A DNA stretch of 64,000 bases from an uncultured candidatus Porisulfidus sp. (GTDB lineage: Bacteria > Pseudomonadota > Gammaproteobacteria > Poriferisulfidales > Oxydemutatoraceae), in the NCBI GenBank assembly GCA_965215125.1, contig OZ244052.1:736001-800000 (forward strand). Direction: 5' to 3'. Position numbers and translations under genes: made by a program. Under the pieces are notes generated by a model. It made no database searches and was not told the origin of the DNA. It saw only the letters and a program-made list of their open reading frames with translations. Below, one piece after another: positions 26,587 to 45,311 of this stretch (the stretch's first letter is position 1; each line of letters starts with the position of its first letter).

Positions 26587-27099
26587 CTAACCGGCACGCC
26601 GGGTTGTACGCGAAGGAATAGTTCTTTGAATTATGGTTTGCTCTTTGCCCGATAATGCCTGCCATTTGAGTTTTATCAGAAAATACTGTCCCGAACGATT
26701 GATGGTCAATTTTCCTTGAGGAAACAACGGCTTTGTAATACCGAACCGCCGACACTGTGTAGATTTTATTGCTGTCTTGCAACCCCATAAAGCCAACGCA
26801 AAGCCGGCGAACTCCCGAGGATTGCACTTTTTAGAGAAACAGTTAGAAGCACCGACACCGGAATTACCGCTACTTAGATAGTATTCGGGGTGCGGACTGG
26901 CGTATAACACTGCAGAAATTTCATTTAGCAACAGACGCGCTTGTAATGAGCGTATTAGTTCTCTCTCGGTGGACAAATTTTTCTGTTGTAACTGCGCAAA
27001 TCCTAATAACGCGATAACCGAGATTGCCAAAGCAAACAAAAGTTCTATCAAGCTAAATCCCGAACACGCGAAACGACGATGAGAACGAGAGTATCGCAT
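26587..27099 (-). CDS. pilV: Type IV minor pilin, PilV-like
   Basis: Prepilin motif GFSLIELL; C-x4-C region; follows a fimT-like gene. Confidence 0.7.
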   Translation of the reverse strand: MRYSRSHRRFACSGFSLIELLFALAISVIALLGFAQLQQKNLSTERELIRSLQARLLLNEISAVLYASPHPEYYLSSGNSGVGASNCFSKKCNPREFAGFALALWGCKTAIKSTQCRRFGITKPLFPQGKLTINRSGQYFLIKLKWQALSGKEQTIIQRTIPSRTTRRAG

Positions 27100-27102
27100 C
27101 GT

Positions 27103-27657
27103 TCAAGACGAACAGTTACCGACATCGGAGGACCGACCGTCGTTTTGATATTGCACCAAACGCACTCTGCCGCTTTGACTGATGACAAGCTCCGAAATGA
27201 CCTGCGTTGATGATCCTGAACAAAGAATAAAACGTCCGTTGTAATTCGCTTTGCCGAAACGATTATAAGTAATGAATCGTGAGAAAGTTTTTGAGCGTAT
27301 GGCAATGTCTCGGCTATCGCCTTGTTGCACGATCAAAAGACGCTCGCCGCGATCCAATTCTCCATTGACAGAATCGGGATGCTCGATAAAAACAAGCCAA
27401 CCTTTTTCGTAAGATATCCCTGCACAATGCGCGCCATCCTCACTACTGCAAATCGTAGTCGCACTGCCGCTGACCATCGCATAGCTACGCGCAAACTCTA
27501 AGGCTTCCCAAAACCGATGCGTATAATGCATAAATCTATTCTGCTTAACCCAGTAAGCAGGCAATGCCAAAACCGAGACTAACAACAAACCGCTAATCGC
27601 CAGCGTAAGCAACAACTCAATCAATGTGAAACCTGCAGTGTCATTTTTTCTATTCAT
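27103..27657 (-). CDS. fimT: GspH/FimT-family minor pilin
   Basis: GFTLIELL, ARSYAM, TICSS, GWLVF, ISQSGRVR. Confidence 0.8.
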   Translation of the reverse strand: MNRKNDTAGFTLIELLLTLAISGLLLVSVLALPAYWVKQNRFMHYTHRFWEALEFARSYAMVSGSATTICSSEDGAHCAGISYEKGWLVFIEHPDSVNGELDRGERLLIVQQGDSRDIAIRSKTFSRFITYNRFGKANYNGRFILCSGSSTQVISELVISQSGRVRLVQYQNDGRSSDVGNCSS

Positions 27658-27731: not shown

Positions 27732-27786
27732 ATTGGGAGCAAATTGCTAGGAATACTATCACTGTACTTGTGCAGAATGCGCGGCA

Positions 27787-27827
27787 ACCACCCCGTCAGG
27801 CTGCGCCTGCCGCCCTAAGGGCAGACA
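27787..27827. repeat. Left half of the repeat/REP interrupted by IS110
   Basis: accaccccgtcaggctgcgcctgccgccctaagggcagaCA; joining it to 30300 restores gggcagacatgccagtccgcccctac. Confidence 0.85.
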
Positions 27828-27844
27828 GATATATTAAACCCTGG

Positions 27845-28043
27845 CTTATTTGATATAAGATAAACGCTTAGGCAGATGCAGTGCCTAGGAAGTCGGAGGA
27901 GACACGCTGCAGGACGGACGAGGCATTAAAGCCTGATGGTATGAAAAGCACTCCTCCGGCGTTATGACTATAGAGCTCGAAAGGCAGCTTGGGACTTTAG
28001 ATCTCGTATTCATCTGTTTGGGCGGCGTAGTCATACTTTCCTA
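27845..28043 (+). ncRNA. Predicted IS110 bridge RNA (5' hairpin, target-binding loop, donor-binding loop); ends approximate
   Basis: Stems taggca/tgccta (27869-27887), gtcggaggag/ctcctccggc (27892-27960), tatgacta/tagtcata (27963-28035). Loop segments ggacggac and ggtatg match the target; aaggcagc and atctg match the donor junction. Confidence 0.8.
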
Positions 28044-28727
28044 AACTGTGTTTGATACCTAGTATTTCATTCATTAACCAACCCTTATGGAGTAATTTAT
28101 TATGGAAAACAAACAACCCGTCACGATTGGCGTTGATGTCTCTAAAGACACTTTAGAGGCGGCTCTATTATTCACTGATAATAGTTTTGCCGAGCAACAA
28201 TTTAGTAGTGATGCCCAAGGCATCAAACAGTTGTTAGCTTGGACGAGCAAACACCGCGCACAGCAGTGTCGCATCTGTGTTGAGGCGACCGGCGGTCTTG
28301 AACTAGACCTGTGCATGGCCGGCTATGATGCCGGGCATCCAATCATCGTGGCAGCACCGGTGCTGATCGCTAGATTCCGCGACTCGCTCGGCATACGCAG
28401 TAAAACCGATCGCGTGGATGCGCGTATCATCGCACGCTTCGTATTTGCTATCCCGCCTGAAAACAATTGGCAAAAGCCCTCACCGGCTGTGCAAGCTTTG
28501 CGCGACGCACTGAAATGGCGCAGGGAATTAGTCAAGTGTTGTACGATGTTAAGCAATTGCGCTAATACCCTGCGCGATGCGAAGCAAAAAAAGGTGGCAG
28601 CCACTAGCCTGAAGAACCATGAGAAGCAGATCAATAAGATTAATGCCTCAATGGACAAAATCATCGCTCAAGACGAGCACCTCACACAGCTTCACCAGTT
28701 GCTGTGTTCCATTCCTGGAATCGGGAC

Positions 28728-29831
28728 TCAAACTGCGGCTGCCCTGTGTGCAGTACTGGATGATAATACGTTTCGCCATCCAAAGCAACTCGCTGTACGA
28801 TGCCATGACATATTGGACAAATGGGGACAAAAGGAAGCAAGCTGTTGTGCCGGTGTTTTATAGGCTAGACTTTGGTGCGGTCTCCTGAAGTTATACCGCC
28901 CGAGATACTCAAATAATACGTCGTTAAATTGTGCTAAATCGGTCACTAAAATATCCTCATGATGTGCTACAAACTCCTCCTGAATGGTACGGTTAAATCT
29001 CTCGTCTATGGCATTCATTTTCGGGCAACGAGGATAAGTATAACAGTGTTTAATGTTGTGTCGTTGTAGATAAGCCTCGAAGTCGCCGGCAAACTCGCTC
29101 CCGTTGTCGGTCAGTACTTGAGAGAGGTTGCCGGGGAATACCGTGTCCACCAATCTTGCGAATGTCGCAGCATTTTTACTGTGGGCGCGTCGGCAGGTAA
29201 TGGCAACGGCAAAACGGCTGTAGTGGTCAATCGCAGTGAACAGATAATAGCGTGTTCGATTAACGAAATAATGGATAGTATCCATAGCCACGCAGTGTCC
29301 GGGAAATTGCGCTTTGGCATCTTTGCTGAGACGGTTGCGTGGTTGAGAAGTCTTGCATTTGTGTTTTCTTTTAGAGAGTTTAGGGGGCGAACAGCGCATG
29401 TTGTCGGATGCATCGGCAATCAACCGTGCAATGGTGCGCGGCTTCGGACACTGCAGTTCGCGTGCATCACACCACGGCTTTAAGAAGTAATAAATCTTCG
29501 GCGCACCCATATTCGGATAGCTGTGTCGCAGTCGCCTAATCTCATCGCTGATGTGAGTAGACCAATTACGGCGACGATGCTGCCGAGGTGCTTTACTTGC
29601 GTCTCGCAAAGCGGATACACCGCCCTCGTCAAAGCACTTTTTCCAGCGGTATAGGGTGGAACGGCTCACCCCGACAAAGTCTTGGGTTGCGTTTAAGCCG
29701 TGTTTGTTCCAAAATTCTAATGCATTAAGTTTTTGTTTGGCATCTGTTGCCATCATAGCCTCCGTTTTGTTGGAAAAAGAGGCTATTTTATAAAAACCTG
29801 TAATGCGGTAGCCGATGTGCTGGTTTTGCAT
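28728..29831 (-). CDS. DDE (rve integrase core) transposase of IS481-like copy 1; ORF runs past the element end
   Basis: HTH GVSRSTLYRW; DT, TAIDHYSR, TDNGSEF, ERFNRTIQEEF, YNFRRPHQSL. Confidence 0.9.
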   Translation of the reverse strand: MQNQHIGYRITGFYKIASFSNKTEAMMATDAKQKLNALEFWNKHGLNATQDFVGVSRSTLYRWKKCFDEGGVSALRDASKAPRQHRRRNWSTHISDEIRRLRHSYPNMGAPKIYYFLKPWCDARELQCPKPRTIARLIADASDNMRCSPPKLSKRKHKCKTSQPRNRLSKDAKAQFPGHCVAMDTIHYFVNRTRYYLFTAIDHYSRFAVAITCRRAHSKNAATFARLVDTVFPGNLSQVLTDNGSEFAGDFEAYLQRHNIKHCYTYPRCPKMNAIDERFNRTIQEEFVAHHEDILVTDLAQFNDVLFEYLGRYNFRRPHQSLAYKTPAQQLASFCPHLSNMSWHRTASCFGWRNVLSSSTAHRAAAV

Positions 29832-29934
29832 GTCGGCTACTTTGATTTAAGAGGTATTTTTCCACTAGGAAAAGTACTTTTCCTAGTGGAAAGATTAGGT
29901 TCTAAAGAGTCCAATATGTATCTGGCATTGTACA
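28794..29934 (-). mobile_element. IS481-like insertion sequence, copy 1 (1141 bp)
   Basis: Imperfect TIRs tgtacgatgccatgacatattggac / gtccaatatgtatctggcattgtaca; direct repeat ctcgc on both sides. Confidence 0.9.
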
Positions 29935-30299
29935 CTCGCCGCCTATATCGGCATCACGCCCAAGCACAAGCAATCCGGCAACTGCGCATCGCCCACGCCC
30001 ATCTCTAAACAGGGCAATGCCGACCTGCGCACCCTCCTATTTATGGCAGCACTCTCGGCACGTCGGCATAACCTAACCATCCGTGCATTTGCCGACCAAT
30101 TAAGTCGGCGGCGTCCGGAGTTAACTAAAAAGCAGATTATTGTTGCTTGCGCTCATAAGCTCACGCGTATTATTTATGGGGTCACCACGCACAAGCAACC
30201 GTTTGACACGAATTATTGTTGAGCATTTGCGTCCTAAATCGATACTCACAAAAGGAGATAAAAAATGAATAAAACGGCTTGATTTTTAATAAGGCATCA

Positions 30300-30334
30300 T
30301 GCCAGTCCGCCCCTACAAAGGAGGGAAATGTACC
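30300..30334. repeat. Right half of the REP/repeat interrupted by IS110
   Basis: tgccagtccgcccctacaaaggagggaaatgtacc; REP right arm as at 19176-19192, plus the core-module tail. Confidence 0.85.
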
Positions 30335-30342
30335 ATCATTAG

Positions 30343-31383
30343 TCACTTAACTTCAATTTTTCCCGAGTCTAGATTACTCAAGATTCCGATGGGGGTTGCT
30401 TTTTCAAAACCTTTCTCTAAGAGTAAGTTCATTACTTTCGGTATAGCCGCCGGTGAGCAAGCGATGAGTAGACCGCCGTTGGTTTGAGGATCGGTGAGTA
30501 GGGTTTTGATTTTCTTCGCTTTAGCCGATAAATCTACATCATGGCGGCAATGTTCCCAGTTGCGGATGCCTGCGCCGGTGCTAATACCGTTCGTTGCCAA
30601 ATCTACGGCTTGTTCAATCAACGGGATATTATTCATAACAATGGAGGCTTGCAGTTTTGACGCTCGGCACATCTCCAGTAAATGGCATAATAATCCGAAC
30701 CCGGTGACATCGGTCATCGCATGCACCGACCCCAGCCTTGTGAGCTCGACACCGACATCGTTCAGTTGGCTTGCATGCTTTATCAAGATTTTGTAGCCTG
30801 CTTGATCAAGTTTGTTTTGTTTATAAGCAGCTGCCAATACGCCGATGCCCAGCGGCTTGCTCAATAGCAAGACATCGCCGGATCGTGCCGTGCTGTTCCG
30901 CTTAATATTACTAGGATGCACCAAGCCACAAACCGAGAGACCGTAGAAAGGTTCTTTACAGTCTATGGAGTGTCCGCCTGCCACCGCAACACCGGCACGA
31001 TTACAGCTTGCACTACCGCCCTCTAATATTTGTGCTATCACCTCCGTTGCCACTTTATCGGTCGGCATGCCGAGTATGTTTAATGCCAAAAACGGTTTGC
31101 CACCCATCGCATAAACATCGGATAATGCATTGGCAGCGGCAATGCAACCGAAGTCGAAAGGATTATCTACCGGAGGTGCGAAGAAATCGGTTGTCGCAAT
31201 CAATGCCTGTTTGGAATTAAGTTTATAGAGAGCTGCATCGTCGAAAGTATCGCTACCCGAAATGAGTTGCAAGTCGGATAATACAGGGATATTTTCCAGC
31301 AATTTACCGAGTATATCCGGAGAAATTTTGCATCCGCATCCGCCGCCGTGAGATAATGCCGTTAATTTGAAGTTTTGAGTCAT
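30343..31383 (-). CDS. selD: Selenide, water dikinase (Cys form)
   Basis: LTALSHGGGCGCKI, DDAA, TTDFF, AANALSDVYAMGG, TDVTGFGL, DPQTNGGLL. Confidence 0.97.
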   Translation of the reverse strand: MTQNFKLTALSHGGGCGCKISPDILGKLLENIPVLSDLQLISGSDTFDDAALYKLNSKQALIATTDFFAPPVDNPFDFGCIAAANALSDVYAMGGKPFLALNILGMPTDKVATEVIAQILEGGSASCNRAGVAVAGGHSIDCKEPFYGLSVCGLVHPSNIKRNSTARSGDVLLLSKPLGIGVLAAAYKQNKLDQAGYKILIKHASQLNDVGVELTRLGSVHAMTDVTGFGLLCHLLEMCRASKLQASIVMNNIPLIEQAVDLATNGISTGAGIRNWEHCRHDVDLSAKAKKIKTLLTDPQTNGGLLIACSPAAIPKVMNLLLEKGFEKATPIGILSNLDSGKIEVK

Positions 31384-32434
31384 GTTAAAGCTAGCAGAAA
31401 ATTGGACCTTGGATCACATTGTGCATTTTGACGACATCTTAGATGTACGTTCACCTGCGGAGTACGCGCTCGACCACCTGCCTCGGGCACTCAATTTCCC
31501 GGTGCTGGACGATGAAGAACGTTCACGCGTAGGCATATTATATAAAAAAGTCTCCGGCTTCGAGGCTAAAAAGCAAGGTGCCGCTTTAGTGGCATCGCAT
31601 ATTGCATCGCACATAGAAAAGCATTTTGCCGACAAAACCGAAAGCTGGCAACCTTTAGTCTACTGTTGGCGCGGCGGCACCCGCAGCGCGGCGATGGTGC
31701 AGGTTCTAAACGACATAGGTTGGCAAGCGCAACAGCTACCCGGCGGCTACAAAGCGTATCGGCGTAGGGTGATAGAGACAATTGCCGAACTTGCTCCCCG
31801 ATTACGCTTTGTCGTGCTGTGCGGAAAAACAGGTGTCGGCAAAACACGATTGCTAGAGGCTTTGTGTAAGCATAGAAAACAGATACTGGACTTAGAAAAA
31901 ATCGCAAACCACAAGGGTTCGGTACTCGGCGAACCAACGCAAGGAGAACAACCTTCGCAAAAATTTTTTGAAAGCACGTTGTGTCATACAATCAGAGCTT
32001 TAGACCCCGAGCAAACCGTTTATGTGGAGGCAGAAAGTCCTAAGATTGGGCGCATCCAAATTCCGACGGTTCTACTCGATGCGATGCATTGCGGCCGATG
32101 CTTACCTATAGAGGCGACACTTTCTGCACGGGTGACTTTTCTATGCGCGGAGTACCGACATTTTCTGCAAAGCCCGGGATTATTCGCATCGGCAATATCG
32201 CGATTGACGGCTCATGTGGGCAAGAAAAAAATAGCGCATTGGTTGTCCTTGCATAAAGCGGAGAAAATGACAGCGTTGGTAGAGGACTTGCTGGTTTCGC
32301 ATTATGACCCTTTTTATACAAGTTCTATGAGTAAACATTTTAAGCATTATCAGAATACCGGTACTACGATACAACTCACTAGCATAGACGAGGAGAATCT
32401 CGACAAAGCTGTTGCCGATATTGAACAAATATAG
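31382..32434 (+). CDS. mnmH: tRNA 2-selenouridine synthase (start uncertain)
   Basis: DVRSPAEY, YCWRGGTRS, GGYKAYR, GKTGVGKT, DLEKIANHKGS, QPSQKFFE, HYDP. Confidence 0.95.
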   Translation: MLKLAENWTLDHIVHFDDILDVRSPAEYALDHLPRALNFPVLDDEERSRVGILYKKVSGFEAKKQGAALVASHIASHIEKHFADKTESWQPLVYCWRGGTRSAAMVQVLNDIGWQAQQLPGGYKAYRRRVIETIAELAPRLRFVVLCGKTGVGKTRLLEALCKHRKQILDLEKIANHKGSVLGEPTQGEQPSQKFFESTLCHTIRALDPEQTVYVEAESPKIGRIQIPTVLLDAMHCGRCLPIEATLSARVTFLCAEYRHFLQSPGLFASAISRLTAHVGKKKIAHWLSLHKAEKMTALVEDLLVSHYDPFYTSSMSKHFKHYQNTGTTIQLTSIDEENLDKAVADIEQI

Positions 32435-44137: not shown

Positions 44138-45208
44138 TCATACCAAGCAATATCGTAGTACGCAATAAAGTGTACGATGCCATGACATATTGGACAAATG
44201 GGGACAAAAGGAAGCAAGCTGTTGTGCCGGTGTTTTATAGGCTAGACTTTGGTGCGGTCTCCTGAAGTTATACCGCCCGAGATACTCAAATAATACGTCG
44301 TTAAATTGTGCTAAATCGGTCACTAAAATATCCTCATGATGTGCTACAAACTCCTCCTGAATGGTACGGTTAAATCTCTCGTCTATGGCATTCATTTTCG
44401 GGCAACGAGGATAAGTATAACAGTGTTTAATGTTGTGTCGTTGTAGATAAGCCTCGAAGTCGCCGGCAAACTCGCTCCCGTTGTCGGTCAGTACTTGAGA
44501 GAGGTTGCCGGGGAATACCGTGTCCACCAATCTTGCGAATGTCGCAGCATTTTTACTGTGGGCGCGTCGGCAGGTAATGGCAACGGCAAAACGGCTGTAG
44601 TGGTCAATCGCAGTGAACAGATAATAGCGTGTTCGATTAACGAAATAATGGATAGTATCCATAGCCACGCAGTGTCCGGGAAATTGCGCTTTGGCATCTT
44701 TGCTGAGACGGTTGCGTGGTTGAGAAGTCTTGCATTTGTGTTTTCTTTTAGAGAGTTTAGGGGGCGAACAGCGCATGTTGTCGGATGCATCGGCAATCAA
44801 CCGTGCAATGGTGCGCGGCTTCGGACACTGCAGTTCGCGTGCATCACACCACGGCTTTAAGAAGTAATAAATCTTCGGCGCACCCATATTCGGATAGCTG
44901 TGTCGCAGTCGCCTAATCTCATCGCTGATGTGAGTAGACCAATTACGGCGACGATGCTGCCGAGGTGCTTTACTTGCGTCTCGCAAAGCGGATACACCGC
45001 CCTCGTCAAAGCACTTTTTCCAGCGGTATAGGGTGGAACGGCTCACCCCGACAAAGTCTTGGGTTGCGTTTAAGCCGTGTTTGTTCCAAAATTCTAATGC
45101 ATTAAGTTTTTGTTTGGCATCTGTTGCCATCATAGCCTCCGTTTTGTTGGAAAAAGAGGCTATTTTATAAAAACCTGTAATGCGGTAGCCGATGTGCTGG
45201 TTTTGCAT
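44138..45208 (-). CDS. DDE transposase of IS481-like copy 2
   Basis: Identical to copy 1 up to MSWHRT, then a flank-encoded tail. Confidence 0.9.
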   Translation of the reverse strand: MQNQHIGYRITGFYKIASFSNKTEAMMATDAKQKLNALEFWNKHGLNATQDFVGVSRSTLYRWKKCFDEGGVSALRDASKAPRQHRRRNWSTHISDEIRRLRHSYPNMGAPKIYYFLKPWCDARELQCPKPRTIARLIADASDNMRCSPPKLSKRKHKCKTSQPRNRLSKDAKAQFPGHCVAMDTIHYFVNRTRYYLFTAIDHYSRFAVAITCRRAHSKNAATFARLVDTVFPGNLSQVLTDNGSEFAGDFEAYLQRHNIKHCYTYPRCPKMNAIDERFNRTIQEEFVAHHEDILVTDLAQFNDVLFEYLGRYNFRRPHQSLAYKTPAQQLASFCPHLSNMSWHRTLYCVLRYCLV

Positions 45209-45311
45209 GTCGGCTACTTTGATTTAAGAGGTATTTTTCCACTAGGAAAAGTACTTTTCCTAGTGGAAAGATTAGGTTCTAAAGAGTCCAATATGTATCT
45301 GGCATTGTACA
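44171..45311 (-). mobile_element. IS481-like insertion sequence, copy 2 (1141 bp)
   Basis: Same TIRs and apparently identical sequence to 28794-29934; direct repeat taaag on both sides. Confidence 0.92.

Follow-up and report, generated by a model that had tools for sequence, protein, structure and literature searches.

The window analysed here, a stretch of 64,000 nt (G000:C1:736001-800000) from a single-contig genome of 2.22 Mb with 46% G+C, harbors at positions 27828-30299 a copy of an IS110-group insertion sequence, lodged at a CA dinucleotide in the loop of a repetitive extragenic palindrome (REP) hairpin. Its long left non-coding end very probably encodes a genuine IS621-type bridge RNA that would read both the element's own ends and the REP sequences of the host. 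From left to right, the locus comprises the following features.

27786-27827, plus strand: left half of the REP target, with the left target GGGCAGA at 27819-27825 and the core CA at 27826-27827
27828-28101, plus strand: left non-coding end (LE, 274 nt), encoding the predicted bridge RNA, with the right donor (RD) GATA at 27828-27831 and a -10 hexamer TATATT at 27830-27835
28102-28793, plus strand: first part of the recombinase gene (residues 1-230), with the DEDD RuvC-like domain and the start of the Tnp domain (PF01548, E 5.2e-21; PF02371, E 1.6e-05)
28794-29933, minus strand: IS481-like insertion sequence of 1140 bp that splits the recombinase gene; rve integrase open reading frame (ORF) at 28728-29831, minus strand
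29940-30222, plus strand: second part of the recombinase gene, Tnp domain with the catalytic serine motif QSGN (PF02371, E 2.8e-11)
30223-30299, plus strand: right non-coding end (RE, 77 nt), with a -35 hexamer TTGATT at 30279-30284, the left donor AAGGCAT at 30291-30297 and the core CA at 30298-30299
30300-30316, plus strand: right half of the REP target, with the right target (RT) TGCCA followed by GTCCGCCCC

At the left junction the sequence is GGGCAGA-CA/GATATATT, at the right AAGGCAT-CA/TGCCAGTCCGCCCC, where the bases after the core begin TGCCAG. Once the element is removed, the REP hairpin GGGC(A/G)GAC-ATGCCA-GTCCGCCC is regained, and the crossover position corresponds to its last stem base and first loop base. 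The genome holds ~45 REPs (89 hits with both strands counted), which carry GGGCGGAC (56/89), GGGCAGAC (31/89) or GGACGGAC (2/89). Eight full copies of the element were found in this genome, every one at the same type of site, adjoining (A/G)GGC(G/A)GA-CA, and a CA core was present at both junctions in all 27 copies located in four genomes of one genus. The arrangement is that of the IS110 group: a long LE, a short RE, no terminal inverted repeats and no target duplication. A sub-terminal repeat of 6 bp flanks the 12-nt donor (TTAATA at 30286-30291, matching TATTAA at 27832-27837). In the A-type lineage, to which the window copy belongs, it reads TTAATA...TATTAA; the C-type has TAAATA...TATTTA, with two changes that compensate each other.

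The IS481-like insert is bordered by a 6-bp duplication (ACTCGC at 28788-28793 and 29934-29939), and beyond it the recombinase frame resumes, base 29940 completing the split codon. Since the insert splits its recombinase gene, the window copy is non-autonomous. At other genomic sites there are two intact copies that share its left end, one of them at G000:C1:603046-604371. An intact identical copy encodes a recombinase product of 324 aa, and contigs of public DNA runs that skip 28787-29934 likewise show the uninterrupted gene as it stands in the intact copies. A preliminary description of this DNA had called the recombinase broken and proposed a repair joining 28793 to 29940; the frame does resume there, but the repair is unnecessary because intact copies exist. 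Its reconstruction of the target as GGGCAGA-CA-TGCC and of the donor as AAGGCAT-CA-GAT agrees with both junctions, and the REP consensus that it had proposed, GGGCGGAC, is the sequence carried by 56 of the 89 hits.

Both domains of IS110-family recombinases, PF01548 and PF02371, were found across the two gene pieces. The intact protein P0001, taken from the identical copy, matches the structure of the ISCro4 transposase (E 1.2e-44) and that of IS621 (E 2.1e-43), and the residues D12, E61, D103, D106 and S243 are invariant in six aligned sequences of the subfamily. Within the genus, the recombinase lineages share 60-97% identity with the A-type of this genome. In 400 genomes of the class, a protein search reached E 1e-45 or better outside the genus just twice, each time at 35-36% identity, and tblastn of P0001 on the IS621-like elements L030, L031 and L056 likewise gave 35-36% identity. 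In the protein database, ~20 unnamed clusters at 46-90% identity, mostly from assemblies, are followed by a gap down to 40%. A metagenome scan with the six-sequence protein alignment produced 155 pattern matches, none of which was confirmed.

The predicted RNA consists of a 5' hairpin and two arms, each formed by an internal loop and an apical hairpin. The arms hold a left and a right target guide (LTG, RTG) and a left and a right donor guide (LDG, RDG).

27867-27889, plus strand: 5' stem-loop of eight pairs, 4/8 of which change on both sides once distant relatives are added
27892-27960, plus strand: target-binding arm, outer stem 27892-27901/27951-27960, inner stem 27906-27908/27947-27949
Target-arm loop parts, plus strand: LTG GGACGGACG 27912-27920; apical hairpin 27921-27934; RTG TGGTATG 27937-27943; handshake bases AA 27944-27945
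27963-28035, plus strand: donor-binding arm, outer stem 27963-27971/28027-28035, inner stem 27975-27979/28019-28023
Donor-arm loop parts, plus strand: LDG AAGGCAGC(T) 27981-27989; apical hairpin 27990-28006; RDG CATCTG 28011-28016; handshake bases TT 28017-28018

The same 5' hairpin and two arms were given by the single-sequence minimum free energy (MFE) fold and by the RNAalifold consensus of 12 left ends, in agreement with the hairpin and two stem-internal-loop-hairpin arms of the preliminary description, whose motif positions (hairpin at 27869, GGACGGAC at 27912, GGTATG at 27938, AAGGCAGC at 27981, ATCTG at 28012) are exact. Six extra RNAalifold pairs, three between LTG and linker and three between LDG and RDG, were kept out of the structure model, since guide bases take part in them and the description of IS621 shows no equivalent. 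No Rfam family matched 27828-28101 at E up to 1, in a database whose release 15 may hold no bridge-RNA model.

In the window copy, LTG GGACGGACG compared with GGGCAGACA gives six Watson-Crick pairs, two G:T pairs and one mismatch over nine positions, and RTG TGGTATG pairs with CATGCCA through six Watson-Crick pairs and one G:U of seven. The LDG AAGGCAGC matches AAGGCATC at 7/8 positions, with the mismatch at position 7, and RDG CATCTG matches CAGATA at 5/6. The strand rule holds throughout: left guides are identical to the top strand and right guides are complementary to it. Of 20000 dinucleotide shuffles of the left end, 0 gave the four guide matches together in correct order and at correct spacing; 22 gave LTG and RTG alone, and 48 gave LDG and RDG alone. 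We also considered an antisense reading of the RNA, which would turn the A:C mismatches of the LTG into G:U pairs, and rejected it, as it turns the G:U of the RTG into A:C and would place all guides on the wrong strands.

Comparison of copies links the loops to the DNA that they would bind. The guide table comprises the 27 copies with loci; nine further C-type matches in genome G004, without loci, lie outside it. On the donor side, every one of the 27 copies has an RDG that pairs with 5-6 of the 6 RD positions. An RDG with ATCTG accompanies an element starting CA-GAT in 11 copies and one with ACCTG accompanies CA-GGT in 16, a switch without exception (27/27) that nevertheless reflects few independent changes because the copies are kin and RDG and RD are inherited together. 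The two partners lie 185 nt apart and are not paired with each other in the fold. LDG matches the donor at 7/8 positions in 24 copies and at 8/8 in three.

On the target side, RTG pairs at 7/7 positions in 19/27 copies and through six pairs and one wobble in five more. Each RTG allele tends to sit in the loop variant that it reads: TTGCATG in CATGCAA loops (4/5 copies), TAGCATG in CATGCTA loops (5/6, the sixth being CATGTTA, which gives G:T), TAACATG in CATGTTA loops (10/11) and TGGTATG, the allele of the window copy, in CATGCCA loops (3/5, with one G:U). When RT was shuffled among copies within genomes, the observed pairing score was reached in 463/100000 trials, and when shuffled across all copies in 0/100000. 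Within the genome of the window, every one of the eight occupied REP loops reached a pairing score of 6.5 of 7 or more with one or other of the two RTGs resident there, compared with 5/27 free oriented sites (Fisher 5.5e-5), at a threshold picked after the data had been seen. Genome G003 offers 205 exact free oriented sites, many more than G000; the first 100 free loops listed, counted by eye, were ATGTTA (34), ATGCAA (21), ATGCTA (16), ATACAA (11), ATGCCA (8), ATATAA (7) and others (3). There, the TAGCATG allele occupies ATGCTA loops in 4/5 cases and the TTGCATG allele ATGCAA loops in 2/2. Regular arrays of REP hairpins were also seen in this genome at G003:C1:633019-633295 and 1743614-1744201, at intervals of 85 bp (four copies) and 283 bp (three copies).

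The LTG follows the REP family, GGACGGAC occurring with the stem GGGCGGAC, GAGAGGAT with GGGAGGGC and TCGAGGGC with GAGAGGGC. It forms 7-8 Watson-Crick pairs of 9 in 13/15 A/B-type copies, with a wobble too in most, and six Watson-Crick pairs plus two wobbles in the window copy and L002. Across ten left ends, variable columns are concentrated in the guides (16/35, compared with 23/141 elsewhere, p 4.7e-4). The 174-nt bridge-RNA region as a whole is 86-96% identical between lineages whose coding sequences share 66-77%, which reflects either a much stronger constraint than on the protein or homogenisation by exchange.

In IS621, each right guide is followed by two bases that, once strands have been exchanged, pair with the other substrate at its positions 6-7 (PMC11208160, PMC11208158; here and below, statements on published systems follow the parts of the cited texts that were available). 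The same behavior is visible at position 7. In the window copy, the A after RTG pairs with donor T7 and not with target A7, and the T after RDG pairs with target A7 and not with donor T7. Over all copies, the A faces donor T7 in 27/27 and is unpaired with target A7 or G7, and the T faces target A7 (or G7, as a wobble) in 26/27, L028 having G instead. Position 6 shows a mixed pattern, and the handshake guides proposed in the preliminary description hold at position 7, where each base pairs with the other substrate only, but not at position 6. Its other expectations fared better: a core and a REP target different from those of IS621 are borne out by CA in 27/27 copies and by the occupied REP loops, and the guides covary with donor and target, through the switch of RDG with GAT or GGT in 27/27 copies and through RTG alleles that sit in matching loops.

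Stem covariation in support of the fold comes from outside the genus. Within it, 36 of the 44 stem pairs never vary and one shows a compensatory change. A covariance model (R1), built from ten left ends with the guide bases left unpaired, found a full-length match in G077 (L031) directly upstream of a gene for a 36%-identical recombinase (22.7 bits, E 8e-5 over 10.6 kb), and six copies in G107 at 43-46 bits in a search of 150 other genomes of the class. With three distant sequences added, 21/44 pairs change on both sides, at least one in every helix, a count biased towards the structure because these sequences were aligned by the model built from it. In the enlarged alignment, 96.7% of cells pair; 0/500 shuffles reach the 21 compensatory pairs, and partners slid by 1-3 columns give at most three such pairs. 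The stem covariation proposed as a check in the preliminary description is barely seen within the genus (1/44) and present with distant relatives (21/44), in an alignment fitted to the model. The IS621 layout that it had recognised is upheld by guide positions that are those of IS621 and by R1, which finds IS621-like RNAs upstream of distant recombinases.

These relatives also bear on the core. The junctions of L031 are TTGCGCC-CT/TATATC on the left and ACAGTAT-CT/ACGG on the right, and its loop sequences are UUGCGCCCU, CGUAG, ACAGUAUCU and AUAAG. In the two relatives inspected, L031 and L058, the guide columns match the elements' own targets and ends, and the cores are CT. In both L031 and L058, the aligned guide ends are ..UAG and ..AAG, compared with ..AUG and ..CUG in the window element. 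As RTG and RDG end in AG in the CT-core relatives and in UG here, the core-binding bases have changed together with the core.

Several observations weigh against a working bridge RNA at this locus. The stability of the fold is unremarkable (z = -1.41), and since 18/200 shuffles are as stable, stability alone proves nothing. No copy has a full LTG match: an A:C mismatch at position 3 is fixed in 15/15 A/B-type copies, and the C-type LTG forms only five Watson-Crick pairs and one wobble of nine with its REP. The ninth LDG base (U) is mismatched to the core A in every copy, a base that would be irrelevant because the LDG of IS621 pairs only eight (in that system RDG pairs with the core and the right donor; PMC11208160, PMC11208158). 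The recombinase gene of the window copy is broken, and in the integrated copy, a simple scan for sigma-70-like promoters found none upstream of the RNA. To these are added the near-invariance of the stems within the genus, the kinship of the copies behind the RDG/RD switch, the occupancy threshold chosen with the data in view and the model-guided alignment of the distant sequences.

Part of this evidence would suit a left end that does no more than form a structured 5' leader on the recombinase mRNA, acting on translation or stability, in which the resemblance to target and element ends is a by-product of common descent or of a captured REP. Stems that hardly vary within the genus are what any structured leader would show, the fold is not exceptionally stable, and a ribosome-binding site and start codon follow 66 nt after the second arm. 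We nevertheless regard a mere leader as highly improbable, as it is the loops that vary and not the stems. The RDG tracks the first bases of an element 185 nt away that it does not pair with in the fold, the RTG tracks the occupied REP loop, and the same loop positions in distant CT-core relatives match the targets and ends of those elements. A guide RNA in the right end, in the manner of the IS1111-group seekRNA, with the left-end structure serving something else, is barely conceivable. Nothing in its favor came to light, the RE has only 77 nt, mostly -35 box and donor half-site, a 274-nt LE is the IS110-group arrangement, and the sub-terminal repeat of 6 bp falls below the IS1111 range of 7-17 bp (PMC11208160).

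Of greater weight, though still unlikely, is that the RNA is a bridge RNA by descent whose A-type allele in the window is decaying or poorly active and has spread by gene conversion or with B-type help. In this allele, the ninth base of the LTG is G and not A, the RTG forms a G:U pair, position 7 of the LDG is G, and the RDG is preceded by C. The B-type in the same genome is the better match at all four guides (LDG 8/8, RTG 7/7 in 2/3 copies, RDG 6/6), and the recombinase gene is broken in 2/4 A-type copies. Yet the four A-type copies are identical or two bases apart over 1326 bp and stand at four REP sites, which points to recent movement. The blemishes, moreover, are not peculiar to this allele: G7 of the LDG occurs in 24/27 copies from four genomes and so is not a decay of the A-type, C precedes the RDG in 8/27 copies from three of the four genomes, and position 7 of the left donor is reported to tolerate mismatches in IS621 (PMC11208160). 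Finally, 3/5 sites occupied with this RTG have the loop that it pairs with best, ATGCCA. We consider a bridge RNA that reads the element's ends and the host REPs the best account of the left end. It is supported by element anatomy, guide complementarity, the covariation of guides with DNA, the covariation of the fold, and protein and RNA homology to the IS621 type; transcription, RNA-protein binding and catalysis we infer from sequence.

The predicted promoter would form in a circular intermediate. The -35 hexamer of the RE (TTGATT, or TTGACT in the B-type) comes to lie 17 nt upstream of the TATATT of the LE in the circular junction only, and both hexamers and the 17-nt spacing are conserved in all variants. 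The RE-LE circle junction was not found among the contig rows listed for four DNA runs, and a search of public sequencing runs listed no RNA run with this sequence. We hypothesize that the bridge RNA would be transcribed from the left end, most probably by this promoter, assembled only on circularisation (TTGATT, 17 nt, TATATT). Its first internal loop would present the target guides: an LTG with the top-strand sequence of the left REP stem, which would therefore pair with the bottom strand, and an RTG complementary to CA-TGCCA on the top strand of the REP loop. The donor guides, in the second internal loop, would read the joined element ends AAGGCAT-CA-GATA. A tetramer of the DEDD/serine recombinase would then exchange strands at the shared CA, and the element would land in the loop of a REP hairpin without duplication. 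For the window copy itself to move, recombinase would have to come from the two intact identical copies at other genomic sites.

The history of this copy bears on movement in trans. A second copy (L004, G000:C1:297990-300461) shares the IS481-like insert with the window copy, down to its position and orientation, and the flanks of the two differ beyond the REP. With the insert excluded, no base separates L004 from the two intact copies; two bases separate the window copy from them. The simplest reading of these sequences is a single insertion event, after which the 2.47-kb composite would have moved with recombinase supplied in trans; alternatively, the shared insert was copied by gene conversion between copies. 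Since a recombinase-dead copy with a 1.1-kb foreign insertion sequence stands at two sites, the ends and the RNA may suffice for movement in trans. Taken together, we find it an evenly balanced proposition that this is an active natural CA-core lineage, which would break with the near-invariant T of the IS621-group core, that its co-resident RNA alleles, different almost only in their guides, split the REP loop variants of one genome among them in a natural form of reprogramming, and that ends plus RNA are enough for movement in trans.

The IS481-like element (1140 bp, inverted ends TGTAC...) is itself repeated, with seven identical copies in the genome and two more at 96%; within the window it occurs at 28794-29933 and at 44171-45310 (genome 780171-781310). 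In contigs from three public DNA runs, its right end is followed by its left end after five extra letters, an arrangement that would fit a circular intermediate or a head-to-tail pair.

Two chimeras were detected. L005 (genome 1998246-1999578, minus strand) joins an A-type left end and the first 45 codons to a B-type recombinase, and in L036 (G003), the left end of that genome's other lineage stands before an A-type recombinase (96%). As read from these two loci, the RNA module has been exchanged between recombinase lineages. Other copies depart from the regular site. Solo left-end fragments occur at genome positions 521887-521933 (L014) and 2109565-2109617 (L017); in L017, the first ~52 nt of the left end are joined to the right half of a REP at a CA inside the loop of the 5' hairpin. 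A full element occupies the same internal CA of the 5' hairpin loop in L042 (G004), and in L034 (G001) an element lies at the CA of GGAGGAGA-CA inside the left end of another copy. These four loci look like products of recombination at sites that match only part of the guides. Such recombination at partially matching sites has been described for IS621 (bioRxiv 10.64898/2026.08.31.748434).

The neighbors of the insertion, at window positions 26587-27657 (minus strand) and 30343-32434, are two ORFs with N-terminal F-(S/T)-L-I-E-L-L segments, which presumably encode type IV pilin-like proteins, and a gene pair that we take to be selenophosphate synthetase and tRNA 2-selenouridine synthase.

Bridge recombinases are under development as programmable tools for genome rearrangement, and the members characterised in the papers cited here, IS621, IS622 and ISPpu10, all use a CT core, which limits the sites that can be addressed. 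The T at the second core position is described as almost invariant in IS621 and related orthologues, with a main-chain contact given as the reason (PMC11208158). If active, an orthologue that reads CA with a 7-base RTG would widen the core space and would offer a scaffold with ~90% conservation around variable guides. The four genomes form an unusually clean natural record in which guide alleles match the REP loop variants that they occupy. Because the class of system is already well known, the element extends the catalogue and opens no new mechanism. The sources searched gave no name for the subfamily, in a class surveyed across thousands of orthologues whose survey tables were not covered. 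They likewise held no literature on the element, on insertion sequences of the host lineage or on natural CA cores, the supplementary orthologue tables, which may list such cores, again lying outside the search.

Every sequence-level feature of the IS110 group for which we tested was found in the element, and the CT core of the IS621 subfamily is the one tested feature that it lacks. The likeness to IS621 of Escherichia coli (PMC11208160, PMC11208158) extends to the DEDD and serine recombinase (structure 8wt6, E 2.1e-43), the RNA in a long left end, the order of 5' stem-loop, target loop and donor loop, and guides of which the left follow the top strand and the right its complement, both including the core. 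It further covers the 8-base LDG, one handshake base per right guide, a REP target, a predicted junction promoter and a short sub-terminal inverted repeat. The differences are a CA core here in place of CT, with core-binding bases UG and not AG in RTG and RDG; a distant protein, at the 35-36% identity to IS621-like elements given above; a natural RTG that pairs seven bases compared with four in wild-type IS621; a sub-terminal repeat of 6 bp compared with 2-3; and a different REP family, with insertion in the hairpin loop. IS622/ISCro4 of Citrobacter rodentium (bioRxiv 10.1101/2025.05.14.653916, PDB 9t56) provides the best match among solved structures (E 1.2e-44) and shares the 14-base recognition scheme with handshake guides, but has a CT core and demonstrated activity. 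In the IS1111 group, which has the same recombinase family and an RNA that reads target and donor (seekRNA or right-end bridge RNA), it is a long right end that carries this RNA, unlike the left-end RNA here, and sub-terminal repeats measure 7-17 bp. ISPpu10 of Pseudomonas putida (bioRxiv 10.64898/2026.03.19.712850) is also an IS110-group element that inserts into REPs. It has a junction promoter, tolerates non-canonical guide pairs and mobilises LE-cargo-RE units in trans, and mutational scanning found its right guide strict and its left guide permissive. Here too, the RTG is perfect and the LTG mismatched, and a cargo-bearing copy has seemingly been duplicated. The two elements differ in the CT core of ISPpu10 and in its determinant, a stem-loop in the 5' extension of the target, compared with a crossover inside the loop of the REP hairpin in the element described here.

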